Source of the DNA: Gemmatimonadota bacterium
Lineage (GTDB): Bacteria > Gemmatimonadota > Gemmatimonadetes > Palauibacterales > Palauibacteraceae
NCBI GenBank assembly: GCA_039585235.1
Contig: JBDGWG010000002.1
Location: 27,346 to 91,345 of the forward strand
Length of the DNA stretch: 64,000 nucleotides
Direction of reading: 5' to 3'
Each line of letters opens with the position of its first letter. Positions within the stretch are counted from its first letter, which is position 1. This document shows, piece after piece, positions 11,177 to 49,708 of the stretch. Below the pieces are notes generated by a model. It had not been told where the DNA came from. It searched no databases and worked only from the letters and a program-made list of their open reading frames with translations. The position numbers were made by a program, and so were the translations under genes.

Positions 11177-11206
11177 GCGTCCTCACTCCCTGCCTGGGCA
11201 CCGCGA

Positions 11207-31002: not shown

Positions 31003-31397
31003 GGAGATCCGCGGAGGGGGGTAAGCCGGGTTCTGTAACGGGCCGTGAGACCCGCTGAGGTCATCTCTCTGGGACGCCGGTCACCCGGCGCCTCGTGCAG
31101 CCTACCCGGAGCTCGAGCGGGGCGGGCCGCCCCATCGCTCCTGCTTGGCCTTGCTCCCGGTGGGGTTTGTCGTGCCGCGGCCGTTGCCGGCGCGCGCGGT
31201 GGGCTCTTACCCCACCGTTTCACCCTTGCCTGTGCGGTCGGCCGAAGCCAACCGCCATCGGCGGTCTATTCTCTGTGACACTTTCCGTCGCCTCGCGACG
31301 CCCGGGCGTTACCCGGCACCGTGCCCTGCGGAGCCCGGACTTTCCTCGAGCCGAGCCTTGTGGCCGACCCGCGACCTCATCCCCCTCCGCAGCTCCG
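31003..31397 (-). ncRNA. rnpB: RNase P RNA (bacterial type A)
   Basis: The minus strand contains GAGGAAAGUCCGGGCUCC (P4 5' strand) near the 5' end, GGGUAACGCC in the middle, and ACAGAACCCGGCUUAC (P4 3' strand) near the 3' end. The terminal helix pairs GCGGAGGGGG with CCCCCUCCGC. A TATACT -10 box lies just upstream at about 31403-31408. Boundaries are +/-10 nt. Confidence 0.85.
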
Positions 31398-34463: not shown

Positions 34464-36377
34464 ATGACGAGAGTTCTCTTGGTTGACGATACAGCTGTGA
34501 AGACGCGCGTGGAGACGAACCGGGTCCAGGCGACCCGGTCCCCGCAGTGCACGGTCGAGGTGGTCTCCGATTCCGGCGAGGGCGCCCAGAAGTGCGGGCA
34601 GACTTTCGGCGCGGTCAGCGCGAAGATGGGCAACGGCGTGTGGACGGTGGAGATCATCCCGGCGGAGATCCAGCCGCCCCCCCGGAGCCCGGCCGGCGCC
34701 AGCGGCAACCGGATCCGGATCGGCGAGGAAGTGGTGACCAACTGGGGCGACCGCACGAACGTCGCCATCGCCTTCAACGAGCAGGTCCTGCTCGCCCGGC
34801 ACCGGCTCGATGCGATCGAGGACGATGCGATCCTCCTGGTCGAGAACATGTGGGCCACGCACAAGGACGAGGACATCCGGGCGGAGTGGACCGCGGCGAT
34901 GGAGGAGCTCGGCGCGGCGAACTACCGGATCATCGAAGTCCCGATGGAGGAGGAGTGCCTCACCATCGTGGACAACGCGCGCAAGGGCAAAAATATGTTC
35001 GCGCTCGGCGTCCTGTGCTGGATGTTCGATCGCGACATGGACATCACTCGCGACCAGATCGCGCATGCCTTCCGGAAGAAGGCCCCCGAGATCACCGAGC
35101 GAAACCACGAGCTGCTCGAGCTCGGGTACTCGTGGGCAGACGCTCACCTGGACGTCCGTATCGACGTGCCACCGGGCCTGTCGCCCGAGAACACCCTTGT
35201 GATGAACGGCAACCAGGCGATCGCCTATGGCGCGGTGGCGGCCGGAATGGACCTGGCCGCCATGTACCCGATCACCCCGGCCACGTCGGTCTCGCATCAG
35301 CTCGGTGAAATGTTCTACAAGTTCGGTGGGGTCGTTCACCAGGCGGAGGACGAAATCGCTGCCGCAGGAGTCGCGATAGGCGCTTCGTACTCCGGGAAGG
35401 TGGCGTTCACGATCACCTCGGGCCCCGGCCTCGCCCTGAAGACCGAGTTCCTCGGTTTGTCCGTTATGTCGGAGATCCCCCTCGTGGTGGTGGACGTGCA
35501 GCGGGGCGGCCCGAGCACCGGTCTGCCCACGAAGGTGGAGCAGTCGGATCTCCTGGCGGCCCTTTTTGGCCAGCCGGGCGACGCGCCGCACGTGGTGATG
35601 GCTCCGGCCACGATCGAGGAGTGCTTCCACGCCATGATCACGGCCCGCAGGATCGCCGAGACGTTCCGCACGCTGGTCATCGTGATGACGGACGCCAATC
35701 TGGCCACCGGTGTGCAGCCGTTCGCCCGCCCCGCGCTCGATCCGGCGTGGCAGGGTTCGGCCCCCGACATGTCGCCGGTCGCGGAGGGAAAGGCTCCGTA
35801 CGCTTGGGACGAGGAGACTGGACTTTCGAGGCGCTTCATTCCGGGCACGCCGGGCGGCATGCACACGCTCACCGGTCTGGCGCACGATGAGAACAGCCGG
35901 GTGGCCTACGCCTCTGCCATCAACCAGAAGAGCTCGGCCATGCGGAGCCGTAAGATGGCCGTGCTGCACAGCACGCTCAGGCCTCCCGTGGTGCACGGTC
36001 CGGAATCGGGTGACCTGCTGGTCGTCGGCTGGGGAAGCACCAAGGGCGCGATCGAGGAAGCCGTGGACCGGGCACGCGAGGAAGGCTTCTCGGTCTCGTC
36101 GCTCCACCTGCGCTTCCTGTCGCCGCTCGAGCCCGGTCTGAAGGCGATATTCGGGAGGTTCAAGAAGGTCATGACGGTCGAGATCAACTACAGCGACGAT
36201 CCCGACATGCCGTACATCACGGACGAGAACCGGCGGCGCGGCCAGCTGGCGTGGTTGCTTCGGGCCCAGACGCTGGTGGACCTGGACTGCTGGACACGCG
36301 TGCTGGGTGAGCCCCTGAAGCCGGGGGAGATCCGCGACGTGATCCGGGCCAACGTTGCGAAAGGGGGCGCGGCATGA
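34464..36377 (+). CDS. korA: 2-oxoacid:ferredoxin oxidoreductase alpha subunit (KorA-type, fused gamma/alpha domains)
   Basis: 637 aa with an N-terminal gamma-like domain (SGEGAQKCGQTFGAV) and pyruvate-flavodoxin oxidoreductase core domains. Confidence 0.88.
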   Translation: MTRVLLVDDTAVKTRVETNRVQATRSPQCTVEVVSDSGEGAQKCGQTFGAVSAKMGNGVWTVEIIPAEIQPPPRSPAGASGNRIRIGEEVVTNWGDRTNVAIAFNEQVLLARHRLDAIEDDAILLVENMWATHKDEDIRAEWTAAMEELGAANYRIIEVPMEEECLTIVDNARKGKNMFALGVLCWMFDRDMDITRDQIAHAFRKKAPEITERNHELLELGYSWADAHLDVRIDVPPGLSPENTLVMNGNQAIAYGAVAAGMDLAAMYPITPATSVSHQLGEMFYKFGGVVHQAEDEIAAAGVAIGASYSGKVAFTITSGPGLALKTEFLGLSVMSEIPLVVVDVQRGGPSTGLPTKVEQSDLLAALFGQPGDAPHVVMAPATIEECFHAMITARRIAETFRTLVIVMTDANLATGVQPFARPALDPAWQGSAPDMSPVAEGKAPYAWDEETGLSRRFIPGTPGGMHTLTGLAHDENSRVAYASAINQKSSAMRSRKMAVLHSTLRPPVVHGPESGDLLVVGWGSTKGAIEEAVDRAREEGFSVSSLHLRFLSPLEPGLKAIFGRFKKVMTVEINYSDDPDMPYITDENRRRGQLAWLLRAQTLVDLDCWTRVLGEPLKPGEIRDVIRANVAKGGAA

Positions 36378-37327
36378 GCCTCTCCTGCTGCTCGCTGCTC
36401 ACGCCGGTCGAGGAGGACCGCGAGTTCAGCCTCGAGGATTACGAGGGAGCCCGCCCCCGCTGGTGCTCGGGGTGTGGCGACCACTCCGTGCTCACGGCGG
36501 CGCAGCGGCTCCTGGTGGACGAACAGCTGAAGCCCGAGGAGACGGTGTTCGTCTCGGGGATCGGCTGCTCCAGCCGCTTCCCGCACTACATGAAGACCTA
36601 CGGTTTTCACGGGCTGCACGGCCGGGCGCTCCCGGTCGCCACGGGCGTCAAGCTGAATCGGCCGGATCTCAACGTGTTCGTGGTGATGGGCGACGGCGAC
36701 TGCGTGTCGATTGGCGCCGGACACTGGGTGCACGCCATCAGGTACAACGTGGACATGGTCGCCATGATGCTGGACAACAACATCTACGGCCTGACCAAGA
36801 TGCAGACGTCGCCCACGACGCCGCAGGGCTACAAGAGCAACACTCAGCCGCAGGGAAGCTGGCTCCCGGCGCTCGATCCGCTCGAGGCGACGCTCGGGAT
36901 CACGAACGCTTCCTTCGTGGCGCAGACGGCGGAGTGGATCCCGGCGCACCTGTTCGCGACTCTCCAGGCGGCGTACCGCCATCGGGGATTCGCGTTCGTC
37001 CGCGTGCTTCAGCGTTGCCCGGTGTTCACGGAAGACATCTATTTGGACGCCGTGCGAAACCCGGAGATGGTCGAAATGCTAGATCATCCCGACGGAGTCG
37101 AGGTCCCCGAGTCACTGCGGCAGATATACCCGAACCAGATGCGGCACGACCCGCGTAACCTGGCCGCGGCGCGGGAGATCGCGGCCGACTCATCGCGTCT
37201 CCGGATCGGCGTGTTGTATCGTGACGAGTCCAATCCGCGGTACGAAGAAACCCGACATCTTCCGCTGCACACGGCGGAAGACAAGATCCGAATCCTGAAC
37301 GAAGAGCTGGACAAATATGCCGTCTGA
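36374..37327 (+). CDS. korB: 2-oxoacid:ferredoxin oxidoreductase beta subunit (TPP-binding)
   Basis: CSGCGDHS and the TPP motif GDGDCVSIG. ATGA overlap with korA. Confidence 0.9.
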   Translation: MSLSCCSLLTPVEEDREFSLEDYEGARPRWCSGCGDHSVLTAAQRLLVDEQLKPEETVFVSGIGCSSRFPHYMKTYGFHGLHGRALPVATGVKLNRPDLNVFVVMGDGDCVSIGAGHWVHAIRYNVDMVAMMLDNNIYGLTKMQTSPTTPQGYKSNTQPQGSWLPALDPLEATLGITNASFVAQTAEWIPAHLFATLQAAYRHRGFAFVRVLQRCPVFTEDIYLDAVRNPEMVEMLDHPDGVEVPESLRQIYPNQMRHDPRNLAAAREIAADSSRLRIGVLYRDESNPRYEETRHLPLHTAEDKIRILNEELDKYAV

Positions 37328-38348
37328 CAAGACGACCGACGAGCGCACCGCACGTGCGCTGGACGTCCTCGAAAAGGCACGCGGAGACTTCCACTCGGCC
37401 CTCGTGGCGACGTCGGAGGAGCTCCGCGGCCTGTTGGACGCCGGGAGCGCCACCGCGGAAGCACGGGCCGAGCGCACGGCGGCCGAGCTCGGCGCGTTCG
37501 CCGTAGGGCATATCGATATCGAGAGATTCGCGTCCTTCCAGGAGACCGGTGAGCCGGTGGCGGTCACCGAGGCTCCGAGGATCGAAGCGGCGACCCGGGC
37601 TCTTCAGTCCCTCCTGGAGCACGGCAGCGACCTCTACTTCGTCAGCGTGGAGCCGGGCTCCGACCTGCGCGACGCGGCGACGCGGGCGCTCGGAAGGGCC
37701 GGGCGGGCGTTCGGCGCGGCACGGACGGTGGAGCTGGCGCGCGCCGGCAAGTACGACGAAGGCGCGCACGGCGGGTGGCTGGACAGTTTCCCACCCTCGC
37801 TGTGGAGCCAGCGGGAAAGAGAGCTCGCTCCGCCGCTCGTGATGGAGGTGGAAGGAGCCGACCTGCGACCGGGCGGGCTGGCCGATTTCCTTGATGGCGG
37901 TCAGAAGATCGTGTTGGTGGTTCGCGGGTCCGCCCCTCCAGCCTCGTTGTCCCGGCTCATTACGCCCGGACTACTGGTGGTACAGACCGAGGACCCGGCG
38001 GAGCTGGCCATCGTGGCGGAGGCCGAAGGACCGGCGATCGCCGCGCTCGTCCCGAGCGACGCATGCCGCTTCGTGCACTATCCGGCCCCGGATGGCGGCG
38101 CGGGACGGCTCACGGTGCACCACATGCCTGCGGAGGAGCCGCGACGCGCCCTGGGAAGCATCAGCGTTTTTCAGCAGGTCGAGGCGATGCGGCAGTTGGC
38201 AGCGCTGTCCGCTGGATGGGGACTCGGCGCTTCCGAGACGGCCGTATCGTCCGACGACGGAGCCTCCGGGCCGCCGCCCGCTGCCTCAGCGGCGGACAAG
38301 CTGGCGGCGTGGGTCCTCCGCCAGGCAGACATTTCGGGAACGGGCTGA
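37317..38348 (+). CDS. hypothetical protein (343 aa, Ala/Gly/Leu-rich, no TM, no recognisable motif) embedded between korB and rnfB
   Basis: Long ORF overlapping the korB 3' end by 11 nt, with a 12-nt gap to rnfB. No conserved family was recognised. Confidence 0.5.
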   Translation: MPSDKTTDERTARALDVLEKARGDFHSALVATSEELRGLLDAGSATAEARAERTAAELGAFAVGHIDIERFASFQETGEPVAVTEAPRIEAATRALQSLLEHGSDLYFVSVEPGSDLRDAATRALGRAGRAFGAARTVELARAGKYDEGAHGGWLDSFPPSLWSQRERELAPPLVMEVEGADLRPGGLADFLDGGQKIVLVVRGSAPPASLSRLITPGLLVVQTEDPAELAIVAEAEGPAIAALVPSDACRFVHYPAPDGGAGRLTVHHMPAEEPRRALGSISVFQQVEAMRQLAALSAGWGLGASETAVSSDDGASGPPPAASAADKLAAWVLRQADISGTG

Positions 38349-38359
38349 GGGGGGGACGC

Positions 38360-39211
38360 TTGGACCCTCATGCCATCCTGTCTTCCGTCGCCGTGCTGGG
38401 CGGGGTGGGGCTCACGTTCGGTACCCTGATCGCGATCGCGAACAGGAAGTTGTACGTGTGGGAGGACCCCCGCATCGACGAGATCACCGACATCCTCCCG
38501 GGCGCCAACTGCGGAGCGTGCGGTCTCGCGGGTTGCCGTGCGTTCGCAGAAGCGGCGATCGACGGTCAGATCGCCCCGGCCGGGTGCACGGTGATGGGCG
38601 AGGCCGAGCTGGAGGACGTGGCGGCCATGCTGGGCGTAGATGCCGGCGAGGCCTCGAAGGTCGTGGCCCGCCTGCTGTGCGCAGGTGGCAGCGACGTCGC
38701 GCCGCAGAAGGCCCTGTACGACGGCATCGAGAGCTGCGCGGCCGCCGTTGCGGTGAGTGGCGGCGGGAAGGCGTGTGCGTGGGGGTGCGTCGGACTGGCA
38801 GATTGCGCGGTCGTGTGCACGTTCGACGCGATCCGGATGAACGACGTGGACCTTCCGGTCGTGGTCACGGAAAGGTGCACGGCGTGCAACGACTGCGTGG
38901 AGGCATGCCCGCTCGACCTGTTCGTGCTCATGCCGATGGACCACAAGCTGATCGTGCAGTGCAGGAACCTGCTGGATGGCGACGCGGCGACTGATGTGTG
39001 CGCCGTGGCCTGCAACGCGTGCGGGCGGTGCGCACAGGACGCGCCCGAAGTAGTGACAATGGACGGCGGCCTGGCCGTCGTGGACTATGATAAGATCGAT
39101 TTCGCCGACCCGACGGCGGCGGCGCGCTGCCCCACTGGAGCGATCCGGTGGGTGGAGGGCGCCCAGCACTTCGAGGTCGAGCTGACAGCGGCAGGGAGTC
39201 TAACAGGATGA
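38360..39211 (+). CDS. rnfB: Rnf electron transport complex subunit B (polyferredoxin)
   Basis: N-terminal TM helix, the RnfB signature LPGANCGACGLAGCRAFAEAA, and two further 4Fe-4S CxxCxxCxxxCP motifs. TTG start with a GAGGGGGG RBS. Confidence 0.85.
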   Translation: MDPHAILSSVAVLGGVGLTFGTLIAIANRKLYVWEDPRIDEITDILPGANCGACGLAGCRAFAEAAIDGQIAPAGCTVMGEAELEDVAAMLGVDAGEASKVVARLLCAGGSDVAPQKALYDGIESCAAAVAVSGGGKACAWGCVGLADCAVVCTFDAIRMNDVDLPVVVTERCTACNDCVEACPLDLFVLMPMDHKLIVQCRNLLDGDAATDVCAVACNACGRCAQDAPEVVTMDGGLAVVDYDKIDFADPTAAARCPTGAIRWVEGAQHFEVELTAAGSLTG

Positions 39212-42200
39212 TCAGGCGAAACAGAGGCGACGACCCGGCACCCGAAGCGCGGTACCCGGGCGTTCCGGTGGCGATGGACGGCAGCGAGGCGGTCGTGGAG
39301 ATGGAGACCGCCGCCAGCGAGGGGGCGGGAGCGTACCCGATCACCCCGTCCACTCAGATGGGCGAGGGGTGGGCCGCAGCGAAGGCCGCGGGAAGGACCA
39401 ACGTCAATGGCCGGCGGCTGCTGTTCTTCGAGCCGGAGGGGGAACACGCGGCGGCGGGGGTCACGGCCGGAATGAGCATGACCGGGCTCCGGGCGACCAA
39501 CTTCTCGAGCGGACAGGGCATCGCGTACATGCACGAGTCCCTGTACGCGGCCGTCGGAAAGCGCCTCACGTACGTGCTCAACGTCGCGGCCCGCGCCATG
39601 ACGAAGCACGCCCTGAACGTGCACGCCGGCCACGACGACTACCACGCCGTCGACGACACGGGGTTCTTTCAGGTATTCGCCAAGGACGTCCAGGGGATCG
39701 CCGACCTGACGCTGATCGCCCATCGGATCGCGGAGCTCAGCCTGAATCCGGGGCTCGTGGCGCAGGACGGCTTCCTGACGAGCCATGTGATCGAATCGGT
39801 GCGCTTGCCCGAGCGGGATCTCATCAAGGAGTACCTCGGAGATCCGGCGGACATGATCGAGTCTCCCACCCCGGCGCAGGTGCTCACGTTCGGCGCTACC
39901 CGCCGCCGGATCCCGGAAATGTTCGACCTGGACTACCCCGCCCTCCTCGGGTCGGTGCAGAACCAGGACGCGTACATGCAGGGTGTGGCGGCCCAGCGGC
40001 CGTTCTACTTCGATCACGTGCGGGAGCTCACTGATCAGGCCATGGCGGAGTATGCGGAGCTGACGGGCCGCCGGTACGAGCGGACCCTGGGCTACCTCAT
40101 GGATGACGCCGAGTACGTCCTGGTGGGCCAGGGCTCCGTCGTGTCGAACGCCGAGGCCGTGGCGGACTACCTGCGGGCGGAGCGCGGGCTCAAGGTCGGG
40201 GTGATGGACGTCGTGATGTTCCGCCCGTTCCCCGCCGATCTGATCAGCGCCATGCTGAAGGGCAAGAAGGGCGTCACGGTGCTGGAACGCTGCGACCAGC
40301 CGCTGGCCGTGGACCAGCCGCTGCTGCGGGAAATCCGGGCGGCCATGTCGCAGGGCCAGGAAAACAACCGCGCTTCTCGAGCCGCGAAGAACGGCTCGCG
40401 CCCCTTCCCTCTGGTGGCCGATGTCGCACCCGAGCAGGTGCCCGACTTCTACTCGGCCGGGTTCGGATTCGGGAGCCGGGACCTCCAACCGGCGGACCTC
40501 GTCCTCGCGGTGGAGAACATGCTTCCCGGAGGACGGACGCGGCGCCAATACTATCTCGGGATCGACTTCGTTCGTGAGGGCACGAAGCTCCCGAAGCTGG
40601 AGATCTGGCAGGAAGAACTGCTCGAGCATTACCCGGACCTCGGAGAGCGCGCGCTCGTGCCCGCAGGTGACATCAACCTGCTGCCCGAGGACGCCATCTC
40701 GATGCGCATCCACTCGGTGGGCGGCTGGGGTGCGATCACGATGGGTAAGAACGTGGTCATGACCGCGTTCGAGCTCGCGGGCCTCAACGTCAAGGCGAAT
40801 CCCAAGTACGGGTCCGAGAAGAAGGGCCAGCCGACCACGTTCTACGGCGTGCTCTCCCGCAAGCCGCTGCGCCTGAACGGTGAGCTCCAGTTCGTGAACG
40901 TCGTGCTGTCTCCGGATCCCAACGCGTTCAGCAACTCGAACCCGCTCGCCGGGCTGCAGCCGGGAGGCGTGTTCGTGATCCAGAGCGAACACGAGCCCGA
41001 TGCCCTGTGGGCCTCCCTGCCCGCGCAGGCGCGCCAGGTCATCCAGGAGAACGACATCAAGGTGTTCTCGGTCGACGCGTTCAAGATCGCCACCGAGGAG
41101 GCCACCGATCCGGATCTCCGATACCGGATGCAGGGAACCGCGTTCATGGGCGCCTTCTTCCGCACGTCGCCGTTCATGGAGGCGGAGGGCCTGGACGAGG
41201 AGACCCTGTTCGAGGGGATGCGGAAGCAGCTCGAGAAGAAGTTCGGGCACCTGGGCGAGCGCGTGGTGGAAGCCAACCTCAAGGTGATCCGGCGAGGCTT
41301 CGACGAAGTCCGGCCCATGGTGGTGCAGGGCGAGCTCGTGGGCGCCGGCCAGGTGATGGCGGAGGCGGCGGTGGGCCAGATTCCGACGCTACTCGATCAC
41401 TCCGACCAGGAGTGGGGGATCGGGAACCAGGGCCGGTTCTGGGAGCAGGTGTGCTCGCTGTGCGGACTCGACCAGGACGTGATCGCCGACCCGTTCGCGG
41501 CGATCAGCGCCATTCCGGCCGCCACCAGCACCGTGCGCGACATGTCGGACATCCGTTTCGAGATTCCGGAGTTCATCGCGTCGAAGTGCACGGGGTGCTC
41601 CCAGTGCTGGACGCAGTGCCCGGATGCGGCGATCCCGGGAGTGGTCAACTCGGTGGAGGACGTCCTCCAGGCGGCCATCAGGACCGCCCAGAACGGCAAG
41701 CCCCTGGACCGTATCCAGTCGGTGTCGGCCAACCTGGCCCGCGAGGCGCGCAAAGTCCTGAAAGCCGTCCCGTTCAAGACGTTCGGCGATACCGTCTCGA
41801 CGGCTTACGCCAACCTCGCGGAAAAGCTGCCTTGGGACGCCGAGCGCAAGAAGGAACTGGACGAGGAGTTCGCCGCCGTGTACTCGGTGCTCGCGGACTT
41901 CCCTCTCGCGAAGACGGTTCCGTTCTTCGACAACCACGAAAGCAAGGAAAAGGGCGCGGGCGGCCTCCTGTCGATCACCGTGAATCCCGAGGCCTGCAAG
42001 GGCTGCAACATCTGCGTGGACGTGTGCGCCGACGGCGCGCTCGTGACGGTGCATCAGAACGAGGAGAACCTGGACCTGCTGCGCCGCAACTGGAAGCTGT
42101 GGGAGAACCTTCCCGACACGGCCGACCGGTTCATCAACATCCGGAATCTGGAAGAGGGAATCGGAGTTCTTCCGTCGCTGCTGTTGAAGAAGGAGAACTA

Positions 42201-44337
42201 CCGCACGATGGCGGGAGGTGACGGGGCGTGCATGGGGTGCGGAGAGAAGACGGCCGTGCACCTGATCGTCTCGGCAGTCGAATCGCTGATGCAGCCCCGG
42301 GTCGAGAACTTCGTGGCCCGGATAGAGGAGCTGATCGAGACGCTGGACGGCCAGGCCCGCGAGCTGCTGTCCGCCGATGCGGACCTCGATCTTGCGGCGC
42401 TCGCCGATGGTGAGGCCGCGGAAGTCCCCCTGGACGACGAGAAGCGGGCGCAGCTCAAGCTGTACACGGATGCGATCGCCGCCCTCAAGGACCTGTTGTG
42501 GCGCTACACCAAGGGGCCGAGCGGCCAGGGACGCGCCAACATGGGAATCAGCAACAGCACCGGCTGCTCGTCGGTGTGGGGCAGCACCTTCCCGTACAAC
42601 CCGTATCCGTATCCGTGGGTGAACCACCTGTTCCAGGACTCGCCGTCCGTGGCTATCGGGATCTTCGAAGGCCACATGCGGAAGATGGCGGACGGGTTCA
42701 CCGCCGTGCGCCGGGCCCGGTTGCTCGCCGCCGGCGAGTACGACGCCGAGGTCCACGAGCCCGAGTTCGTCGAGCTCACGTGGCAGGACTTCACGGACGA
42801 GGAGTTCGACCTGTGTCCGCCGATCGTGGCGATGGGCGGCGACGGGGCGATGATGGACATCGGGTTCCAGAACCTGTCCCGGCTCCTCGCCTCAGGTAAG
42901 CCGATCCGGGTGGTCGTGCTGGACACCCAGGTCTACTCGAACACCGGCGGCCAGGCCTGCACGAGCGGGTTCATCGGACAGGTGTCCGACATGGCCGCGT
43001 ACGGCAAGGCCCAGCACGGCAAGGAGGAGACCCGCAAGGAGCTGGCGCTGATCGCCCTCGCGCACCGGGGAGCCTTCGTGCTCCAGTCCTCGCAGGCCTC
43101 GGCGTCGCACATGATCGGCGGCGTGATCCGGGCGCTGAAGTCGCCGCGGCCCGCCGTCATGAACATCTACACGCCGTGTCCGGTGGAGCATGGCCTTGCC
43201 GACGAGTGGGCGCCCAACGCCTCCCGCTTCGCCCTCGAGGGGCGCGCGTTCCCGTTCCTGATCTTCGATCCGGACGCCGGGTCGACGATCGCCGACTGCC
43301 TGGACCTGAGCGGCAACCCCGATCTCGACCAGACGTGGCCAACGTACGAGCTGGAGTACGCAGACGAGGACGGACATTCCCAGAAGATGGAGCTTCCGGT
43401 CACGACCGCGGACTGGGCGGCCACGGAGGGCCGGTTCAAGAAGCACTTCAAGCGGATCAAGCCGGCGGACTGGGACGACGAGCAGGTGCTGTTCCATGAA
43501 TTCCTGGACCTGTCGGAGGACGCGCGGGTCGGCAAGAAGCCCTTCATCTGGGTGATCGACGCGGACAAGAAGCTCGGCCGCCTGGCGTGCTCGATGGAGA
43601 TGGTGCTGCTCGGCGAGGACCGGCTCCTGTACTGGTCGCAGATGAAGGAGCTGGCGGGTCTCGAGGTCCCCGCATCGGTGCGGGCCGACATCGCAGACGA
43701 CATGGAGGCCGAGTTCGAGGCGAAGGCCGCGGCGATCCGCACGGATTACGAGGCGCAGCTCGCGGAGCTCCGCATGAGCTACCCGGCGCTCGTCGCCCGA
43801 CGGATGGCCGAAGGTCTCCTGGCCTCCGGAGACGGGAACCTGACGGTGGCCGAGATCCTGGCCCGGGCGAACGCCGATCCGGACCTGCAGCCGATCACCG
43901 CCGAGGCCGTGGCCGGGCTGGCCGGCGGACTGGGCGTGGACGTGGGCGGCGGAAACGGTGGCGCGACGATCACGGTCGCCCCGGCGGAAGCCGTCGCGGG
44001 GTCCGTGGCGATCGCGGAGGCCACCGAGGTCGCGGAAGTGCCGGTCGCCCCGGCGCCGGCCGCCGAAGACGACGAGGACGATGCCCTCGTGATGGACCCG
44101 TACATCGAGACGGCCCGCTGCACCTCGTGCGACGAGTGCATCAACATCAACAAGAAACTGTTCGCATACGACGAGAACAAGCAGGCGTACATCAAGGACA
44201 GGAACGCCGGCACGTTCGCCGAAATCGTTCAGGCGGCCGAGAAGTGCACCGCCGAGATCATCCACCCGGGCACGCCGCTCAACAAGAAGGAGAAGGACAT
44301 CGAGAAGTGGATCGAGCGGGCGCAGCCGTTCAACTGA
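39208..44337 (+). CDS. pyruvate:ferredoxin (flavodoxin) oxidoreductase, unusually long (1709 aa) with internal insertion and about 385-aa C-terminal extension ending in a ferredoxin-like CxxCxxC...C domain
   Basis: PFOR domains I-VI are recognisable (GAYPITPSTQM, the 2x[4Fe-4S] domain CTGCSQCWTQCP / CKGCNICVDVCA, and the TPP domain GGDGAMMDIG...VLDTQVYSNTGGQ). An insertion of about 100 aa lies between CMGCGEKT and STGCSSVWGS. The C-terminal extension holds a coiled-coil, an Ala/Gly/Val/Glu-rich linker, and RCTSCDECIN...EKCTAEII. ATGA overlap with the rnfB stop. Confidence 0.85.
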   Translation: MIRRNRGDDPAPEARYPGVPVAMDGSEAVVEMETAASEGAGAYPITPSTQMGEGWAAAKAAGRTNVNGRRLLFFEPEGEHAAAGVTAGMSMTGLRATNFSSGQGIAYMHESLYAAVGKRLTYVLNVAARAMTKHALNVHAGHDDYHAVDDTGFFQVFAKDVQGIADLTLIAHRIAELSLNPGLVAQDGFLTSHVIESVRLPERDLIKEYLGDPADMIESPTPAQVLTFGATRRRIPEMFDLDYPALLGSVQNQDAYMQGVAAQRPFYFDHVRELTDQAMAEYAELTGRRYERTLGYLMDDAEYVLVGQGSVVSNAEAVADYLRAERGLKVGVMDVVMFRPFPADLISAMLKGKKGVTVLERCDQPLAVDQPLLREIRAAMSQGQENNRASRAAKNGSRPFPLVADVAPEQVPDFYSAGFGFGSRDLQPADLVLAVENMLPGGRTRRQYYLGIDFVREGTKLPKLEIWQEELLEHYPDLGERALVPAGDINLLPEDAISMRIHSVGGWGAITMGKNVVMTAFELAGLNVKANPKYGSEKKGQPTTFYGVLSRKPLRLNGELQFVNVVLSPDPNAFSNSNPLAGLQPGGVFVIQSEHEPDALWASLPAQARQVIQENDIKVFSVDAFKIATEEATDPDLRYRMQGTAFMGAFFRTSPFMEAEGLDEETLFEGMRKQLEKKFGHLGERVVEANLKVIRRGFDEVRPMVVQGELVGAGQVMAEAAVGQIPTLLDHSDQEWGIGNQGRFWEQVCSLCGLDQDVIADPFAAISAIPAATSTVRDMSDIRFEIPEFIASKCTGCSQCWTQCPDAAIPGVVNSVEDVLQAAIRTAQNGKPLDRIQSVSANLAREARKVLKAVPFKTFGDTVSTAYANLAEKLPWDAERKKELDEEFAAVYSVLADFPLAKTVPFFDNHESKEKGAGGLLSITVNPEACKGCNICVDVCADGALVTVHQNEENLDLLRRNWKLWENLPDTADRFINIRNLEEGIGVLPSLLLKKENYRTMAGGDGACMGCGEKTAVHLIVSAVESLMQPRVENFVARIEELIETLDGQARELLSADADLDLAALADGEAAEVPLDDEKRAQLKLYTDAIAALKDLLWRYTKGPSGQGRANMGISNSTGCSSVWGSTFPYNPYPYPWVNHLFQDSPSVAIGIFEGHMRKMADGFTAVRRARLLAAGEYDAEVHEPEFVELTWQDFTDEEFDLCPPIVAMGGDGAMMDIGFQNLSRLLASGKPIRVVVLDTQVYSNTGGQACTSGFIGQVSDMAAYGKAQHGKEETRKELALIALAHRGAFVLQSSQASASHMIGGVIRALKSPRPAVMNIYTPCPVEHGLADEWAPNASRFALEGRAFPFLIFDPDAGSTIADCLDLSGNPDLDQTWPTYELEYADEDGHSQKMELPVTTADWAATEGRFKKHFKRIKPADWDDEQVLFHEFLDLSEDARVGKKPFIWVIDADKKLGRLACSMEMVLLGEDRLLYWSQMKELAGLEVPASVRADIADDMEAEFEAKAAAIRTDYEAQLAELRMSYPALVARRMAEGLLASGDGNLTVAEILARANADPDLQPITAEAVAGLAGGLGVDVGGGNGGATITVAPAEAVAGSVAIAEATEVAEVPVAPAPAAEDDEDDALVMDPYIETARCTSCDECININKKLFAYDENKQAYIKDRNAGTFAEIVQAAEKCTAEIIHPGTPLNKKEKDIEKWIERAQPFN

Positions 44338-44370
44338 TCCTGAAACGCGCGGGCGGCTGAGAGGAAGGCA

Positions 44371-45696
44371 ATGCTCGGATCCAGCACATTCAGACACGGC
44401 GTGCACCCGCCGGAGACCAAGCAGCTGACCGAGAGCGTGCCGGTGCGGCGCATGCCGTTCCCCGAGGAGATCGTCCTTCCTCTACGCCAGCACGCCGGCC
44501 GGCCGGCCCGTCTGCTCGTGAAGGTCGGCGATCACGTCGAGCGGGGCGACAAGGTGGCCGAGGCGGACGGTTTCGTCTCGGTCCCGATCCATGCTTCCGC
44601 CGCCGGCACGGTGAAGGGCATGCGGCTGTGTCCCCATCCGGACGGGTCGATGGCCGAGTCAGTGGTCATCGCAGTGGACCGGTACTCCCCACAGGTACCG
44701 AGGCCGCGCATCGTCCCCAGGTGGGAAGGCCTGTCGCCGCAGCAGGTGGTGGAGGAGGTCCAGAAGGCCGGAGTCGTGGGTCTCGGGGGCGCCGCCTTCC
44801 CGACGCACGTGAAGCTGCTCCCTCCGGAGGACGTCCCCGTTCACACTCTGATCATCAACGGAGCGGAGTGCGAACCGTACCTGACCACCGATCACCGCAC
44901 GATGGTCGAGTATCCGGAGAGAGTGCAGTTCGGGAGCCGGATCATGATGAAGGCGCTGGGCGTCGAGAAGGCGGTCATCGGAGTCGAGAAGAACAAGCCG
45001 GACGCCATCGCCCGGCTGCGCGCGACCTTGCCCGACGACCTCGACGTTTCCGTGGTGCCGCTCACGGTAAAGTATCCGCAGGGCGCCGAGAAGATGCTGA
45101 TCAAGGCGGTGACGGGGCGTGAGGTCCCTTCCGGCAAGCTTCCGATGAACGTGGGCGTCGTGGTGCAGAACGTCGGGTCCATCGCCTGTATCGGAGAGAT
45201 CTTCGAGACCGGTTACCCCCTGATCGAGCGCGTCGTGACCGTCACCGGGCCCGGGGTCCGGAAGCCCTCGAACCTGATCGTCCCCGTGGGCACGCGGCTC
45301 CGGGACGTCCTGGAGTTCTGCGACGGGCTGACCGAGGACGCCGCCCAGATCGTGTTTGGCGGCCCCATGATGGGGGCCGCGCAGCCCGACCTCGACACCC
45401 CCCTCATCAAGGGCACGACAGGCGTGGTCGTGCTCACGAGCGAGGAGGCCCGGTCCGTGGAGCGCTATCCGTGCATCCACTGCGGTCGCTGCCTCGAGGC
45501 GTGTCCCGTGTTCCTCAACCCATCGCTCCTCGGCACGCAGGCGCAGGCGGGCCGGTACGAGGAGATGGAAGCCTCGCACCTCATGGACTGCATGCTGTGC
45601 GGGTGCTGCTCGTACGTATGCCCGTCGAACATCCCGCTGTCGCAGATGTTCGCGCTCGGAAAGAACATGCTCCGCAAGCGGAAGGCGGCGGCATGA
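44371..45696 (+). CDS. rnfC: Rnf complex subunit C
   Basis: GAAFPTHVKL motif and two ferredoxin motifs CIHCGRCLEACP / CMLCGCCSYVCP, 441 aa. Confidence 0.9.
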   Translation: MLGSSTFRHGVHPPETKQLTESVPVRRMPFPEEIVLPLRQHAGRPARLLVKVGDHVERGDKVAEADGFVSVPIHASAAGTVKGMRLCPHPDGSMAESVVIAVDRYSPQVPRPRIVPRWEGLSPQQVVEEVQKAGVVGLGGAAFPTHVKLLPPEDVPVHTLIINGAECEPYLTTDHRTMVEYPERVQFGSRIMMKALGVEKAVIGVEKNKPDAIARLRATLPDDLDVSVVPLTVKYPQGAEKMLIKAVTGREVPSGKLPMNVGVVVQNVGSIACIGEIFETGYPLIERVVTVTGPGVRKPSNLIVPVGTRLRDVLEFCDGLTEDAAQIVFGGPMMGAAQPDLDTPLIKGTTGVVVLTSEEARSVERYPCIHCGRCLEACPVFLNPSLLGTQAQAGRYEEMEASHLMDCMLCGCCSYVCPSNIPLSQMFALGKNMLRKRKAAA

Positions 45697-46760
45697 GCGA
45701 TGCGAGCCCCGGACGCGGACCGGGCGCTGGTACCTATCTCGATTCCCTGACCGAAATCCGGCTGAGGATCGCGGCCTCGCCGCACCTGCGGTCCTCCCAC
45801 TCCACGCCCCGCATCATGTGGAACGTGGTGGGATCGCTCGTGCCGATCCTGGCGGTCGCGACGTACTTCTTCGGCCCGAGCGCGCTCCTGGTCGTCGGCG
45901 CCGCCACTATCGGCGCCGTGGGCACGGAGCGCCTGTTCGGCCACAAGGGCAGCACGGCGGACGGCTCGGCCGTGATCACGGGCCTTCTGCTCGGCCTGAT
46001 CCTGCCACCTGGTTTTCCCCTGTGGATGGCTTTCCTCGGCGGCGTGTTCGGGGTCGGGTTCGGCAAGCTCATCTTCGGTGGGCTGGGACAGAACGTGTTC
46101 AACCCGGCCCTCCTGGGGCGGGCGTTCCTGCAAGCGGCCTTCCCGATCGCGATCACCACCTGGCCGGTCCAGCCGGTGAGCTGGTGGTCGCTGCGGGGCG
46201 ACAACTTCGCGTTGCCCCTGATGTCTCCGGGCGCACCCGACGTAGCCACCGGCGCCACGCCGCTCGGCCTCATGAAGTTCGAGGGACTGTCCACGAACAC
46301 GCTCGATCTCATGATGGGTTCGACCGCCGGCTCGATCGGCGAAACGGCCGGGCTGCTGATCCTGGTGTGCGGGGGCTATCTGGCTCTGAGGAAGTATCTC
46401 GACTGGCGGATCCCCCTGAGCATCTTTCTCACGGTGTTCGCGTTCTCGGGCCTCCTGTACCTGATCGGCCCCGACCGCTTCCCCAACCCCGTGTTCATGC
46501 TGTTCTCCGGTGGCCTCATGCTCGGCGCCCTGTACATGGCCACCGACCTGGTCACGTCACCCGTGACGCCAGCAGGCTCGTGGATCTTCGGCATCGGCAT
46601 CGGGCTGCTCGTCGTCCTCATCCGGGTATGGGGTGGGCTGCCGGAAGGGGTGATGTACGCGATCCTGTTCATGAACGCGCTCGTGCCGTTCATCGACCGG
46701 GCCACGCAACCGCGGGTGTTCGGGCAGCCGCGCCGGAAGCCGAAGGGAGCGGAGGCATGA
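45693..46760 (+). CDS. rnfD: Rnf complex subunit D
   Basis: Polytopic NqrB/RnfD-like sequence (IGAVGTERLF, the flavinylation region TGATPLG). ATGA overlap with rnfC. Confidence 0.85.
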   Translation: MSDASPGRGPGAGTYLDSLTEIRLRIAASPHLRSSHSTPRIMWNVVGSLVPILAVATYFFGPSALLVVGAATIGAVGTERLFGHKGSTADGSAVITGLLLGLILPPGFPLWMAFLGGVFGVGFGKLIFGGLGQNVFNPALLGRAFLQAAFPIAITTWPVQPVSWWSLRGDNFALPLMSPGAPDVATGATPLGLMKFEGLSTNTLDLMMGSTAGSIGETAGLLILVCGGYLALRKYLDWRIPLSIFLTVFAFSGLLYLIGPDRFPNPVFMLFSGGLMLGALYMATDLVTSPVTPAGSWIFGIGIGLLVVLIRVWGGLPEGVMYAILFMNALVPFIDRATQPRVFGQPRRKPKGAEA

Positions 46761-47527
46761 AGGAGCTCCCCACGGCCCAGGTCGACGACGGCGGCTCGGA
46801 TTCCGGTATGCCAGGACCTCCGCAGGTAGCCTCCGGGAAGCTGATGGCCACACTGGCCATCGCGGGTGCTGTCGCGGGCCTGGCGATCGTGCTCGTGTTC
46901 CAGTGGGCCGATCCGCAGATCCAGGCGCACCGGGCAGCCGCGCTCCGCGCCGCCGTGCTCGAGGTCCTGAGCGAGCCGGCGAGCTATCAGTCCCTGTACG
47001 TGACTGACGCAGGTCTCAGTGATGCGGCGCCGGCGGGGGTGGACACGGTCAGGGCGGAGAAGGTGTTTCTCGGCTTCGACGAAGCGGGGGATCCGGTCGG
47101 CTACGCCGTCACGGGGGCCGAGCCTGGTTTTCAGGACTTCATTCACCTGATCTTCGGGTTCGATCCGGGCGCGGGGCGCCTGCTCGGGATGAAGGTCCTC
47201 GAGAGCAAGGAGACGCCCGGCCTCGGCGACAAGATCTACAAGGACATGGACTTCGTGACCGAATTCCAGGGGGTGGAAGCTCCGATCGTGGGGGTTAAGC
47301 CGGGAAGGGCGACGGGCGCCGCCAACGAGGTGGATATGATCACCGGAGCCACGATCTCCTCGCGCACCGTGATCGGGATCATCAACCACCGGGTCGAGGA
47401 GCTGGGCTCCGACATGGAAGCGCACGCGGCTACCGGCCCCCGGGCGATGGAAAGACCTGATCCGGCCGCCACGGACGAAGCCGGCGGGGACGAAGCCGGC
47501 GCGCACGGGGGTGAGGCAGGGTCATGA
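46757..47527 (+). CDS. rnfG: Rnf complex subunit G (FMN-binding)
   Basis: N-terminal TM and the FMN_bind motif MITGATISSRTV. ATGA overlap with rnfD. Confidence 0.85.
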   Translation: MKELPTAQVDDGGSDSGMPGPPQVASGKLMATLAIAGAVAGLAIVLVFQWADPQIQAHRAAALRAAVLEVLSEPASYQSLYVTDAGLSDAAPAGVDTVRAEKVFLGFDEAGDPVGYAVTGAEPGFQDFIHLIFGFDPGAGRLLGMKVLESKETPGLGDKIYKDMDFVTEFQGVEAPIVGVKPGRATGAANEVDMITGATISSRTVIGIINHRVEELGSDMEAHAATGPRAMERPDPAATDEAGGDEAGAHGGEAGS

Positions 47528-48186
47528 GAGAAACCACGCCGCGCGAAGACCTGATCCGGGGCATCTGGAAGGAAAACCCGGTGCTGGTGCAGCTCCTCGG
47601 ACTGTGCCCTGCCCTGGCGGTCACCAACACGGTTCCCAACAGCATCGCCATGGGTCTCGCCACCTTCTTCGTGCTCATGGGGTCGAGCCTTCTCGTTTCC
47701 TTGTTCAAGAACTGGATCCCCTCCGAGGTCCGGATCTCCGCGTACATCCTGATCATAGCGACGTTCGTCACCATCGCCGACTTCGTGCTCGCGGCGGTCG
47801 TGCCCCTGATCCACAAGGAGCTTGGCGCTTTCATCGCGCTGATCGTCGTCAACTGCATGATACTCGGCCGTCAGGAGGCGTTCGCGTCCAAGAGGCCCGT
47901 CGGAAGGTCTCTTCTCGACGCGGCGGGAACCGGTGCCGGCTTCATGATCGCGATGCTGATGATGGGCACGTTTCGTGAAGTACTCGGGAACGGATCCATC
48001 ATGGGATACAGCGTCCTCGGCGAGAACTTCGAGCCGTGGATCGTGATGATCCTGCCACCGGGCGGCTTCCTCACACTGGGCTTCATCCTCCTCGGCTTCG
48101 GCTGGTGGAAGCAGCGCCAGGCGGAATCGATCCGGGTGCGGCAGTGGCCGCACGGGGTGGCGAGCGGAGAGGAGGAGGCGGCGTGA
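47524..48186 (+). CDS. rnfE: Rnf complex subunit E
   Basis: NPVLVQLLGLCPALAVTN... NqrD/RnfE signature. ATGA overlap with rnfG. Confidence 0.9.
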   Translation: MRETTPREDLIRGIWKENPVLVQLLGLCPALAVTNTVPNSIAMGLATFFVLMGSSLLVSLFKNWIPSEVRISAYILIIATFVTIADFVLAAVVPLIHKELGAFIALIVVNCMILGRQEAFASKRPVGRSLLDAAGTGAGFMIAMLMMGTFREVLGNGSIMGYSVLGENFEPWIVMILPPGGFLTLGFILLGFGWWKQRQAESIRVRQWPHGVASGEEEAA

Positions 48187-48761
48187 TGGGCGAGCTGTTC
48201 TGGATCCTCCTCTCGGCGATGCTGGTCAACAACTTCACCCTGCATCTGTTCCTCGGCCTGTGCCCGTTCATGGGCGTGTCGGCGAAGGTAGAGACGGCGC
48301 TGCGCATGGGGCTCGCGAACATCTTCGTCCTTGTGATGACCTCGGTGTGCGTGTGGCTCCTGAACACGTTCATCCTGGTCTACGCCCCGTATTTGAGGCT
48401 GATTTCGTTCATAGTCGTGATCGCGTCCTTCGTGCAGATCACGGAGATGGCGATCAAGAAGTTCAGCCCCACCCTGTTTCGGCAGCTCGGGATCTTCCTG
48501 CCGCTGATCACCACGAACTGCGCGATCCTCGGATACGCGATCTTCAATACGAACCGGGGCTATGGCTTCCTGCAGGGCCTGTTCTTCGCCATTGGGGCCG
48601 GCCTCGGACTCACTCTGGCCCTCGTGCTGATGGCGTCGATCCGCGAGACGTCGGAGACCGCCAGCATCCCGGCCGTGGCCCGCAACATGGGCCTGGTGCT
48701 GATAATCGCGGGTAGTCTTTCGCTGGCGTTCATGGGCTTCGCGGGGCTGTTCACATCGTGA
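48186..48761 (+). CDS. rnfA: Rnf complex subunit A
   Basis: LVNNFTLHLFLGLCPFMGVS... NqrE/RnfA signature. TGATG overlap with rnfE. Confidence 0.9.
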   Translation: MGELFWILLSAMLVNNFTLHLFLGLCPFMGVSAKVETALRMGLANIFVLVMTSVCVWLLNTFILVYAPYLRLISFIVVIASFVQITEMAIKKFSPTLFRQLGIFLPLITTNCAILGYAIFNTNRGYGFLQGLFFAIGAGLGLTLALVLMASIRETSETASIPAVARNMGLVLIIAGSLSLAFMGFAGLFTS

Positions 48762-48810
48762 TTATCGCGCGGCAACTTTGCGGGCAGGGCGTACGTAGAG
48801 GGGCACAGAA

Positions 48811-48966
48811 ATGACCACGTTTCTGGCGATCGCCGGACTCGCCTTGCTGTTCGTGGTGTTCGGTGCCTTCCGTCCCGGTGCGAAGGGGACGTGCGGCGAC
48901 TGCTCGTGCGCCGAGGGCACGTGCCAACTCGAAGAAGAGGAAGCGTCGGACCTCCACCATTCCTGA
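48811..48966 (+). CDS. small Cys-rich membrane protein (51 aa; FeoB-associated Cys-rich membrane protein-like: TM helix followed by CGDCSCAEGTC)
   Basis: Not in the ORF track because it is under 60 aa. It has an AGAGGGG RBS 7 nt upstream and reads MTTFLAIAGLALLFVVFGAFRPGAKGTCGDCSCAEGTCQLEEEEASDLHHS. Confidence 0.55.
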   Translation: MTTFLAIAGLALLFVVFGAFRPGAKGTCGDCSCAEGTCQLEEEEASDLHHS

Positions 48967-48979
48967 GGAAGGACCACAG

Positions 48980-49213
48980 ATGGACAGGCATTGGGCCTAC
49001 TGTTCGGCGTGCGACAGGCAGGTCGAGGTCATGGTGAGACCAGCCGGGCCGGCGGACCCTTCGACCGGAAAGCGGGTGGACGAACTCGTGTGCCTGGAGG
49101 TGGGTCATACGTGCACGGGTGCGTTGTGCCCGATCGCGGACGTCACGCCGGAAGAGATGCGCGACGCCCTGGACCGCACCTGGGCGCAGCCTGACTCAAG
49201 GGGAGAGGAGTAA
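48980..49213 (+). CDS. small cysteine-containing protein (77 aa, CxxC...C...C...C, putative zinc-ribbon-like)
   Basis: MDRHWAYCSACDRQVEV... with a GGAAGGA RBS. The upstream extension of the ORF-track ORF is Arg-rich and overlaps the 51-aa gene out of frame. Confidence 0.5.
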   Translation: MDRHWAYCSACDRQVEVMVRPAGPADPSTGKRVDELVCLEVGHTCTGALCPIADVTPEEMRDALDRTWAQPDSRGEE

Positions 49214-49216
49214 GCC

Positions 49217-49501
49217 ATGCCGACGGGAGTCGACTGGATACCGATCGTAGCGATCGTGATGGGAACGCTTACCGTGCTCATTCCGCTATCTCTGATCACT
49301 TTACGCTATGCGATCAAGCCGATCGCCGAGGCCGTGGCCCAGATGCGGTCATCTGGCGCCTCACAAGAGCAGATCGCCGTGATGCAGCAGCGGCTGGCGC
49401 TCCTCGAGCAGCAGTTCGGCGGGCTGGAGACGGAGGTGCACCGGATCGGTGAGGCGCAGGACTTCCAGGCGGAGCTGCTGAAGCCGGCCGAAGACGCCTG
49501 A
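49217..49501 (+). CDS. small membrane protein with C-terminal coiled-coil (94 aa)
   Basis: TM segment IPIVAIVMGTLTVLIPLSLI followed by a heptad-like QQRLALLEQQFGGLETEV. Confidence 0.5.
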   Translation: MPTGVDWIPIVAIVMGTLTVLIPLSLITLRYAIKPIAEAVAQMRSSGASQEQIAVMQQRLALLEQQFGGLETEVHRIGEAQDFQAELLKPAEDA

Positions 49502-49708
49502 TCGGTAACGCCGCAGCAGATAGACGCTTCGGCGCGGACTCCGACCTCCCGCCTTGCCTGCGCATCGGTCCACGGCTACCGTGTGGCAGTCCCCCCGCGG
49601 AGGCTGCTTCAAACTCACCTCAAGCAGGAGGCCGCGATGAGGCATTTTCTACTATCGCATCCGTTTCCCGCGCTTTCTCTCGCCCACCGGCAGTCCACTC
49701 TTCATTCC

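Follow-up and report, generated by a model that had tools for sequence, protein, structure and literature searches.

A giant pyruvate:ferredoxin oxidoreductase with a C-terminal ferredoxin domain, encoded within the rnf gene cluster of a Gemmatimonadota bacterium

The 64-kb stretch of DNA analysed here (the window; its source is a Gemmatimonadota metagenome-assembled genome (MAG), and its GC content is ca. 67%) carries 13 co-directional open reading frames (ORFs) on the + strand, at positions 34464-49501, in the order korA, korB, unk343, rnfB, the gene of a giant pyruvate:ferredoxin oxidoreductase (PFOR), rnfCDGEA, s51, s77, and s94. We propose that they form an operon for a ferredoxin-channelled module in which the oxidation of 2-oxoacids would be linked to the reduction of NAD+ and to ion pumping, a reading to which we assign a probability of about 65%. 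Each part is a member of a known family (Rnf, PFOR, 2-oxoglutarate:ferredoxin oxidoreductase (OGOR), or ferredoxin); what appears to be new is their combination, in which rnf operons of several phyla include a PFOR subfamily of about 1700 residues that carries a ferredoxin on a tether, along with pseudoenzymes derived from it.

In the proposed scheme, two 2-oxoacid oxidoreductases carrying thiamine pyrophosphate (TPP) and iron-sulfur clusters would feed the module, namely KorAB and a PFOR that is catalytically intact as judged by its motifs. Electrons would be exchanged between PFOR and Rnf by way of a [4Fe-4S] ferredoxin domain covalently tethered to the PFOR, which would swing between the distal cluster of that enzyme and the polyferredoxin RnfB and possibly serve KorAB too; RnfCDGEA would then pass the electrons to or from NAD+/NADH, coupled to ion translocation. 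The product of unk343, a putative pseudoenzyme derived from the beta part of PFOR, would probably be a structural adaptor. On balance, pyruvate (or 2-oxoglutarate), coenzyme A, and NAD+ would yield acyl-CoA, CO2, and NADH together with ion export, a conversion that would be reversible in principle. We infer the electron channelling, the association with Rnf, the substrate, the ion specificity, and the direction from the observed protein identities, motifs, architecture, and gene order.

The giant PFOR and its partner proteins

The giant PFOR holds domains I-II-III-V-VI in one polypeptide, in the order of the homodimeric PFORs, with Pfam matches to POR_N (residues 39-267), PFOR_II (301-386), POR (505-699), Fer4 (788-809 and 923-945), and TPP_enzyme_C (1205-1320), and it aligns collinearly, segment by segment, with the Moorella PFOR (6cin). 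Three insertions set it apart (residues ca. 387-488, 813-913, and 1022-1111), the second of which lies between the two cluster motifs of domain V, and from residue ca. 1358 onwards the chain continues as a C-terminal extension of 350 residues. The motifs YPITPST, R129, two CxxCxxCxxxC, GACMGCGE, STGCSS, GGDG, DTQVYSNTGGQ, and YTPCP are kept within as well as across phyla. Both the TPP/Mg site (GGDG, 1210-1213; DTQVYSNTGGQ, 1239-1249) and the three [4Fe-4S] cysteine sets (C794/797/800/804; C930/933/936/940; C1008/1011/1120/1324) are invariant among the aligned relatives (A1) and retained across phyla, and the catalytic motifs are intact in every full-length giant PFOR compared. Conserved with their surrounding motifs are also T46, R129, and N1245, which we take to be the counterparts of the pyruvate contacts Thr31, Arg114, and Asn996 of the D. 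africanus enzyme. With all catalytic motifs present, the window PFOR is ruled out as a dead scaffold of the type described below for Chromatiaceae. Among proteins of solved structure, true PFORs (6cin, 7plm, 1b0p) are most closely related to it; nevertheless, its score against TIGR02176, the PFOR equivalog, amounts to 394.3 bits in three stretches and lies so far under the cutoff of 911.35 that the protein is better regarded as a member of a distinct PFOR-like subfamily of ca. 1700 residues than as a canonical NifJ.

The extension consists of a beta/alpha domain, a long helix, a linker, and a ferredoxin domain. In the AlphaFold2 (AF2) model the beta/alpha domain (model residues 20-125) has a predicted local distance difference test (pLDDT) score of 83-92, and the helix (132-182) one of ca. 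70; a Foldseek search with this model, which is only partly confident, revealed no relative of the extension fold in the PDB (best E 0.54). The linker, some 90 Ala/Pro/Gly-rich residues in the window PFOR, is predicted to be disordered (pLDDT 22-34), and across phyla it ranges from ca. 20 to 90 residues, with an identity of 0.10-0.23 and a gap fraction of 0.39-0.63. The ferredoxin domain of ca. 75 residues matches Fer4_13 (25.4 bits against a cutoff of 24.5; residues 1634-1686) and the PDB ferredoxin I 1dax (E 5e-4), and its four cysteines are invariant in the same alignment and across phyla. A conserved ferredoxin domain behind a variable, disordered linker suggests a tethered mobile carrier domain; the sequence and the low pLDDT of the linker thus suggest that the tail is a ferredoxin carrier on a flexible arm.

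The extension was also searched against 1.8 billion cluster representatives, which gave 1654 hits with a length mode of ca. 810-880 residues. It is homologous to the C-terminal part of a family of ca. 850 residues that has Fer4_13 as its sole Pfam match and whose members, where named, are listed as 'ferredoxin' in Chromatiaceae, a gammaproteobacterial MAG, and a metagenome contig. One of them, P0401 (positions 10001-12523 of the Chromatiaceae locus L086), aligns with residues 1000-1709 of the giant PFOR (E 4e-73) and is devoid of the GCGE cysteines, GDG, and NTGGQ. The family (P0401, P0284, P0301, P0330) corresponds to the C-terminal half of the giant PFOR in degenerate form, with the linker and the ferredoxin tail kept. 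Two longer representatives, P0250 (1565 residues) and P0264 (1432 residues), each bear two such ferredoxin domains.

A related degeneration is seen in unk343, which contains no cysteine and has 314 homologs, all annotated as hypothetical and, in the few cases with a taxon name, from Gemmatimonadota. In its AlphaFold model (pLDDT 81) a helical bundle precedes an alpha/beta domain, and a disordered stretch leads from there to the conserved helix (LAAWxLxQA) at the C-terminus. In a profile comparison its residues 121-274 align with the TPP-binding region of the giant PFOR (1156-1376; E 1.1e-4); it has VEGADL where the PFOR has GDG, and the TPP-Mg loop is deleted, and for these reasons we consider it a likely derivative of PFOR domain VI that lacks the cofactor. 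With the family of ca. 850 residues it shares the helical region and a degenerate TPP-binding (PP) domain homologous to PFOR residues ca. 1000-1380 (probability 91% against the middle of P0284), and it ends after this domain, having no extension, linker, or ferredoxin; in this operon it is the PFOR that bears the tail. The single scores are moderate, and the fold, the profile, and the family agree on unk343 as a likely degenerate domain VI. Kinship with KorB (probability 0.1%) was ruled out, as was kinship with the FNR-like protein of 329 residues that precedes rnfB in Algoriphagus (hhalign probability 0.3%).

The Rnf set is complete, six subunit genes each matching their own subunit family in NCBIfam and Pfam. 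Against the curated NCBIfam cutoffs (in parentheses, in bits) the scores are 529.7 for rnfC (TIGR01945; 245.95), 307.5 for rnfD (TIGR01946; 207.05), 102.5 for rnfG (TIGR01947; 102), 224.6 for rnfE (TIGR01948; 213.4), and 74.5 for rnfB (TIGR01944; 68.7); rnfA, with 219.5 bits (TIGR01943; 229.3), is slightly under its cutoff and still has rnfA as its top match. The translations contain the covalent flavin mononucleotide (FMN) motifs TGATPL in RnfD and TGATIS in RnfG. RnfB belongs with the long polyferredoxins and not with the short Azotobacter type, its closest PDB entries being those of A. woodii (9eri; 9eri_B, E 1.3e-50) and C. tetanomorphum (7zc6). A complex of this kind is predicted to act as a ferredoxin:NAD+ oxidoreductase coupled to the translocation of Na+ or H+. 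KorA scores 531 bits against TIGR03710 (cutoff 482.75), with the Magnetococcus OGOR 6n2n as its top PDB match (E 6.6e-75), and KorB scores 232.6 bits against TIGR02177, under the cutoff of 261.9. The layout is that of a two-subunit OGOR, with an alpha subunit to which the gamma domain is fused and a beta subunit with the TPP domain, and the substrate of KorAB is probably 2-oxoglutarate.

A preliminary description of this DNA had named korAB, the Rnf genes, and a PFOR as the middle ORF, and searches with Pfam and NCBIfam hidden Markov models on each ORF support all of these assignments: korA and rnfB, C, D, G, and E exceed their cutoffs, rnfA is marginally below and identified by its top match, and the PFOR has the domain order and the complete set of catalytic motifs. 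That description overlooked that the PFOR belongs to a distinct subfamily with a tethered ferredoxin and that its 'unknown protein', present as named, is a likely degenerate paralog of the TPP-binding domain of this same PFOR.

Conservation of the gene order across phyla

A scan of one genome per species identified at least 528 loci with relatives, of which the best 80 were kept; the window proteins were mapped onto these and onto two metagenome loci, 82 in total. The giant PFOR gene is directly followed by rnfC in 56 of the 60 loci with enough downstream flank and directly preceded by rnfB in 59 of 69 (two overlapping high-scoring segment pairs being counted), and with its order so conserved the cluster is more than a product of chance. 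The full series korA-korB-unk343-rnfB-PFOR-rnfCDGEA is present in essentially all Gemmatimonadota loci that are long enough, and the closest PFOR homologs with a taxon name are from Candidatus Palauibacterales and Gemmatimonadota. At a PFOR identity of about 50%, the series rnfB-PFOR-rnfCDGEA is met again in Acidobacteriota, Woeseiaceae, Ca. Multivoradales, Myxococcota, Hydrogenedentota, and Ectothiorhodospira magna. The Bacteroidota (Algoriphagus kandeliae, Aquiflexum, Flavobacteriaceae, Saprospiraceae) have the order PFOR-rnfCDGEA-x-rnfB, in which x of Algoriphagus kandeliae is the FNR-like protein mentioned above (NAD_binding_1; L068, 19190-20179), situated between rnfA and rnfB. The adjacency of rnfB, PFOR, and rnfC, for which a synteny search had been advised, is therefore real and widely conserved over phyla. 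At the same Algoriphagus locus a subunit of the DabA inorganic-carbon transporter (L068, 5238-7682) is encoded ca. 2.3 kb upstream of the PFOR, with a peptidase-like gene and an ORF of 119 codons in between, a position that may hint at a CO2-related role.

A particular variant occurs in a Chromatiaceae MAG (L086) and on a metagenome contig (L087), both with the order korA-korB-[840 aa]-rnfB-[PFOR-like]-rnfCDGEA. Here the ferredoxin tail is on the pseudo-beta protein of 840 residues, a homolog of unk343 at the position of unk343. The PFOR-like protein of this context (1524 residues, L086 13400-17974; 1402 residues, L087 13310-17518) shows 31% identity to the window PFOR and has lost YPITPST, the cysteines of the proximal cluster, GDG, NTGGQ, and the tail, retaining just the two clusters of domain V. 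Since nothing is left of the TPP site, of the cysteines for the proximal cluster, or of the tail, while the domain-V motifs are kept, both versions appear to be pseudoenzymes. A dead PFOR that is nevertheless kept at the place between rnfB and rnfC probably transfers electrons or has a structural task connected with Rnf, and together with the relocated ferredoxin arm its retention is the strongest indirect argument for an Rnf-bound role. The L086 cluster directly follows ATP-citrate-lyase-like genes and pntAB. Rnf and pntAB genes are also known from the reverse tricarboxylic acid (rTCA) gene clusters of tubeworm symbionts and of Chromatiaceae/Thioflavicoccus, and a 'PFOR-like' gene and a dimeric korAB were reported for Ca. 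Endoriftia persephone, the 840-residue and PFOR-like architectures not being described in these two papers (PMC6315080, PMC11636981). The Chromatiaceae context and this tubeworm-symbiont literature favour the reductive direction in those organisms.

The locus and its neighbourhood

All genes named in the preliminary description were found at their positions on the + strand (see the table), and the public gene calls for GCA_039592555.1 (contig JBDHBN010000005.1) are identical to this set, the TTG start of rnfB included.

Features of the cluster, with positions in the window
Feature	Position	Strand	Description
korA	34464-36377	+	637 aa, fused gamma+alpha subunit; Pfam POR, POR_N, PFOR_II; TIGR03710
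korB	36374-37327	+	317 aa, TPP-binding beta subunit; Pfam TPP_enzyme_C (96 bits), PFO_beta_C
unk343	37317-38348	+	343 aa, likely cofactor-less relative of the PFOR TPP-binding (PP) domain
rnfB	38360-39211	+	283 aa, TTG start; membrane-anchored polyferredoxin subunit, long type; Pfam FeS and Fer4 families
giant PFOR	39208-44337	+	1709 aa; Pfam POR_N, PFOR_II, POR, Fer4 (two), TPP_enzyme_C, Fer4_13
PFOR C-terminal extension, beta/alpha domain and long helix	43279-43824	+	residues 1358-1539; AF2 model
PFOR Ala/Pro/Gly-rich linker	43825-44097	+	residues ca. 1540-1630; variable in length and sequence
PFOR C-terminal single-cluster ferredoxin domain	44098-44337	+	CxxCxxC...C (C1638, C1641, C1644, C1680)
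rnfC	44371-45696	+	441 aa, NADH/FMN-binding, two 4Fe-4S motifs; Pfam RnfC_N, Complex1_51K, SLBB, Fer4_8
rnfD	45693-46760	+	355 aa, membrane subunit; Pfam NQR2_RnfD_RnfE (352 bits)
rnfG	46757-47527	+	256 aa, FMN-binding subunit; Pfam FMN_bind
rnfE	47524-48186	+	220 aa; Pfam Rnf-Nqr (210 bits)
rnfA	48186-48761	+	191 aa; Pfam Rnf-Nqr (precomputed), TIGR01943
s51	48811-48966	+	51 aa, one transmembrane helix, Cys-rich tail
s77	48980-49213	+	77 aa, Cys-rich, zinc-ribbon-like
s94	49217-49501	+	94 aa, N-terminal transmembrane helix, coiled-coil-like tail

The seven start/stop overlaps that had been named at its junctions are all present: ATGA overlaps of 4 nt at korA/korB, rnfB/PFOR, rnfC/D, D/G, and G/E, an overlap of 1 nt at rnfE/A (GTGATGG), and one of 11 nt at korB/unk343. 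The start of rnfB does not belong among them, being most likely the TTG at 38360, 11 nt past the unk343 stop. Overlaps thus make up 7 of the 12 cluster junctions, the remaining gaps (unk343-rnfB, 11 nt; PFOR-rnfC, 33; rnfA-s51, 49; s51-s77, 13; s77-s94, 3) being at most 49 nt wide. They are equally found at 8 of the 23 junctions of a housekeeping stretch on the same contig; since they are frequent in this genome, they fit an operon without being special to it, ATGA overlaps are ruled out as a distinguishing trait, and the fixed stoichiometry that had been deduced from them does not follow. A sequence scan for sigma-70-like promoters found none within the cluster, and a scan of the + strand for terminators gave weak terminator-like sites and no convincing one, which is weak evidence because the promoters of this phylum may differ. 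No riboswitch or other RNA element was detected in the cluster by an Rfam scan.

Among the three small ORFs that close the cluster, s51 has a weak match to FeoB_associated (18.8 bits, under the cutoff of 27) and corresponds to an ORF of 47-49 codons that follows rnfA in relatives. No Pfam match was obtained for s77, and its homolog in L001 has a weak treble-clef match; homologs of s77 are found downstream of rnfA in many Gemmatimonadota loci. Among the mapped loci s94 is present solely in the closest relatives (L006, L007, L060), and it matches no family. In most Gemmatimonadota relatives (for instance L001, 19924-21064; L002, 19324-20479) rnfA is followed by the Cys-rich membrane ORF of 47-49 codons and then by ApbE; in the clade of the window (48762-49501) the ORFs of 51, 77, and 94 codons take the place of this arrangement.

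Directly downstream of the cluster a large TonB-dependent-receptor-like outer-membrane protein (CarboxypepD_reg and OMP_b-brl_4) is encoded at 49583-52957 on the + strand, and the gene of an iron-containing alcohol dehydrogenase comes next. On the - strand, positions 1-23000 of the window (L085) hold housekeeping genes (mutS, EF-G, ruvABC, tgt, queA, yajC, def, fmt, and thiE/thiS/thiG) with many 4-nt overlaps, and a full-length bacterial RNase P RNA of class A (255 bits) lies at 31006-31391. No tRNA genes were found anywhere in the window.

Alternative readings, known systems, and biological meaning

Several points weigh against a ferredoxin-channelled module. Its pyruvate specificity is deduced from a few conserved residues in a protein that scores under the equivalog cutoff; the confidence of AlphaFold is low for the ferredoxin domain itself; and the adjacency of genes is a sign of functional linkage, not of physical contact. 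No gene for ApbE, which flavinylates RnfD and RnfG, is present in the window, and in 31 related loci ApbE comes directly after rnfA; a functional Rnf is not excluded thereby, because ApbE may be encoded elsewhere in the genome. One Gemmatimonadota locus (L036, 15213-17684) has korAB-unk343-rnfB and a tailed PFOR followed by unrelated genes and no rnfC, a departure that could be a rearrangement or a misassembly. Finally, the joint absence of tail and rnf, which in itself speaks for the module, is seen at a single locus: a deltaproteobacterial MAG (L054, 9842-14614) encodes a giant-type PFOR of 1591 residues, the only tailless one among the 82 loci, with no rnf gene within 10 kb on either side.

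The same proteins may work mainly in the reductive direction in vivo, NADH and the respiratory ion gradient driving electrons through Rnf and the tethered ferredoxin to pyruvate synthase and 2-oxoglutarate synthase. CO2 would then be assimilated anaplerotically or mixotrophically, or these reactions would belong to a reverse TCA cycle. The Chromatiaceae cluster behind ATP-citrate-lyase-like genes and pntAB, the rTCA clusters of tubeworm symbionts and Thioflavicoccus with the 'PFOR-like' gene and dimeric korAB of Endoriftia, and the DabA gene just upstream in Algoriphagus all point that way. So does the lifestyle of many hosts: Flavobacteriaceae, Algoriphagus, Woeseiaceae, and Gemmatimonadota are usually regarded as aerobic or facultative, and NADH and ion-motive force are plentiful in such organisms. 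Against this, the 64-kb window contains neither ATP-citrate lyase nor any other rTCA-specific gene; the PFOR-like protein of Chromatiaceae is catalytically dead, so that its context is not directly transferable to the active window PFOR; and RnfB resembles that of the long-type, ferredoxin-oxidising Rnf of A. woodii and C. tetanomorphum. We therefore hold a mainly reductive role to be rather unlikely, with the reservation that these enzymes are reversible and sequence cannot settle their direction.

That the genes are merely co-regulated, with a soluble PFOR whose fused ferredoxin would be an extra internal cluster or an oxygen shield and an Rnf fed, if at all, by free ferredoxins, is an unlikely explanation. 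It would accord with the limits of adjacency as proof of contact, with the tailed PFOR of L036 that has no rnfC next to it, and with the fact that insertions and extensions of PFORs are known to modulate oxygen stability, as domain VII of the D. africanus PFOR does. It is harder to reconcile with the fact that several phyla have the PFOR inside the rnf set, between rnfB and rnfC, with the dead PFOR-like protein kept at that very position in Chromatiaceae, or with a long, variable, disordered linker, which is typical of a mobile carrier and not of a fixed internal cluster. Less probable still is an enzyme for another 2-oxoacid (2-oxoglutarate, or a branched-chain or aromatic 2-oxoacid, or oxalate): the low TIGR02176 score (394 bits against 911) and the large insertions relative to the solved PFORs would allow it, whereas the true PFORs that are the best solved relatives, the conservation of the presumed pyruvate contacts and their motifs, and the separate KorAB already encoded in the operon speak for pyruvate.

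Going beyond the ferredoxin-channelled module, one may tentatively imagine the PFOR-derived proteins as accessory subunits of a distinct and widespread Rnf subtype. Together they would form a supercomplex, bound to the membrane and translocating ions, that acts as a 2-oxoacid:NAD+ oxidoreductase and uses a swinging-arm ferredoxin in place of free ferredoxin. In Chromatiaceae and tubeworm symbionts the PFOR would then have degenerated to an electron wire or scaffold, and the arm would have moved to the pseudo-beta subunit to serve KorAB in the reverse TCA cycle. We regard this extended picture as possible and would not bet on it.

Compared with known systems, the complex has all of RnfCDGEAB, the long RnfB, and the covalent-FMN motifs of RnfD and RnfG in common with the Rnf of A. 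woodii and C. tetanomorphum (9eri, 7zc6). It differs by the 5.1-kb PFOR gene between rnfB and rnfC, by the pseudo-PFOR-beta gene and korAB upstream and the small Cys-rich ORFs downstream, and by hosts many of which are from lineages considered aerobic or facultative and not from strict anaerobes. With the PFORs of Moorella thermoacetica and Desulfocurvibacter africanus (6cin, 1b0p, 7plm) the giant PFOR shares the domain order, GDG...NTGGQ, the three [4Fe-4S] sets, and the pyruvate contacts, to which are added ca. 500 residues in three insertions and the 350-residue extension and a fourth cluster in the ferredoxin domain. KorAB resembles the Magnetococcus marinus OGOR 6n2n in its fused gamma and alpha KorA, its TPP-domain KorB, and the lack of a delta ferredoxin subunit, and differs in that KorB is under the TIGR02177 cutoff and that the genes are translationally linked to the pseudo-PFOR-beta gene. 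The analogue nearest in function is the pyruvate:NADP+ oxidoreductase of Euglena and Cryptosporidium, a protein of ca. 1800 residues in which PFOR is fused to an NADPH-cytochrome P450 reductase-like flavoprotein and which reduces NADP+ directly. In both cases PFOR is fused to an electron acceptor; here this is a small tethered ferredoxin, and the reduction of NAD+ would need the membrane-bound Rnf. The arm itself recalls the lipoyl domains of the E2 component of 2-oxoacid dehydrogenases, swinging-arm carriers on Ala/Pro-rich linkers, in that a small carrier domain, here an iron-sulfur ferredoxin, sits on a variable, low-complexity Ala/Pro-rich linker. In the literature searched in full text, key reviews being outside its scope, we came across no account of a giant PFOR fused to ferredoxin and encoded in an rnf operon; the earlier remark that the arrangement had not been seen described agrees with what this literature yields, namely cluster-level notes on Endoriftia and Chromatiaceae.

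Rnf is usually pictured with a pool of free ferredoxin and has mostly been discussed for anaerobes and nitrogen fixers. In the conserved operon, where a PFOR with its own tethered ferredoxin is encoded between rnfB and rnfC, electrons may take a hard-wired path from pyruvate to NAD+ that pumps ions, or the opposite path. If true, bacteria abundant in soil and sediment would have in it either a substitute for pyruvate dehydrogenase that conserves energy or a pyruvate synthase driven by respiration, and since cultured carriers exist (Algoriphagus kandeliae, Aquiflexum sp., and Ectothiorhodospira magna), experiments are possible. The system would also offer a handle on how low-potential electrons are protected in oxygen-exposed organisms, on the role of the 'PFOR-like' and 840-residue 'ferredoxin' genes in the reverse-TCA clusters of tubeworm symbionts, and on the evolution from enzyme to scaffold, or pseudoenzyme, inside respiratory complexes.

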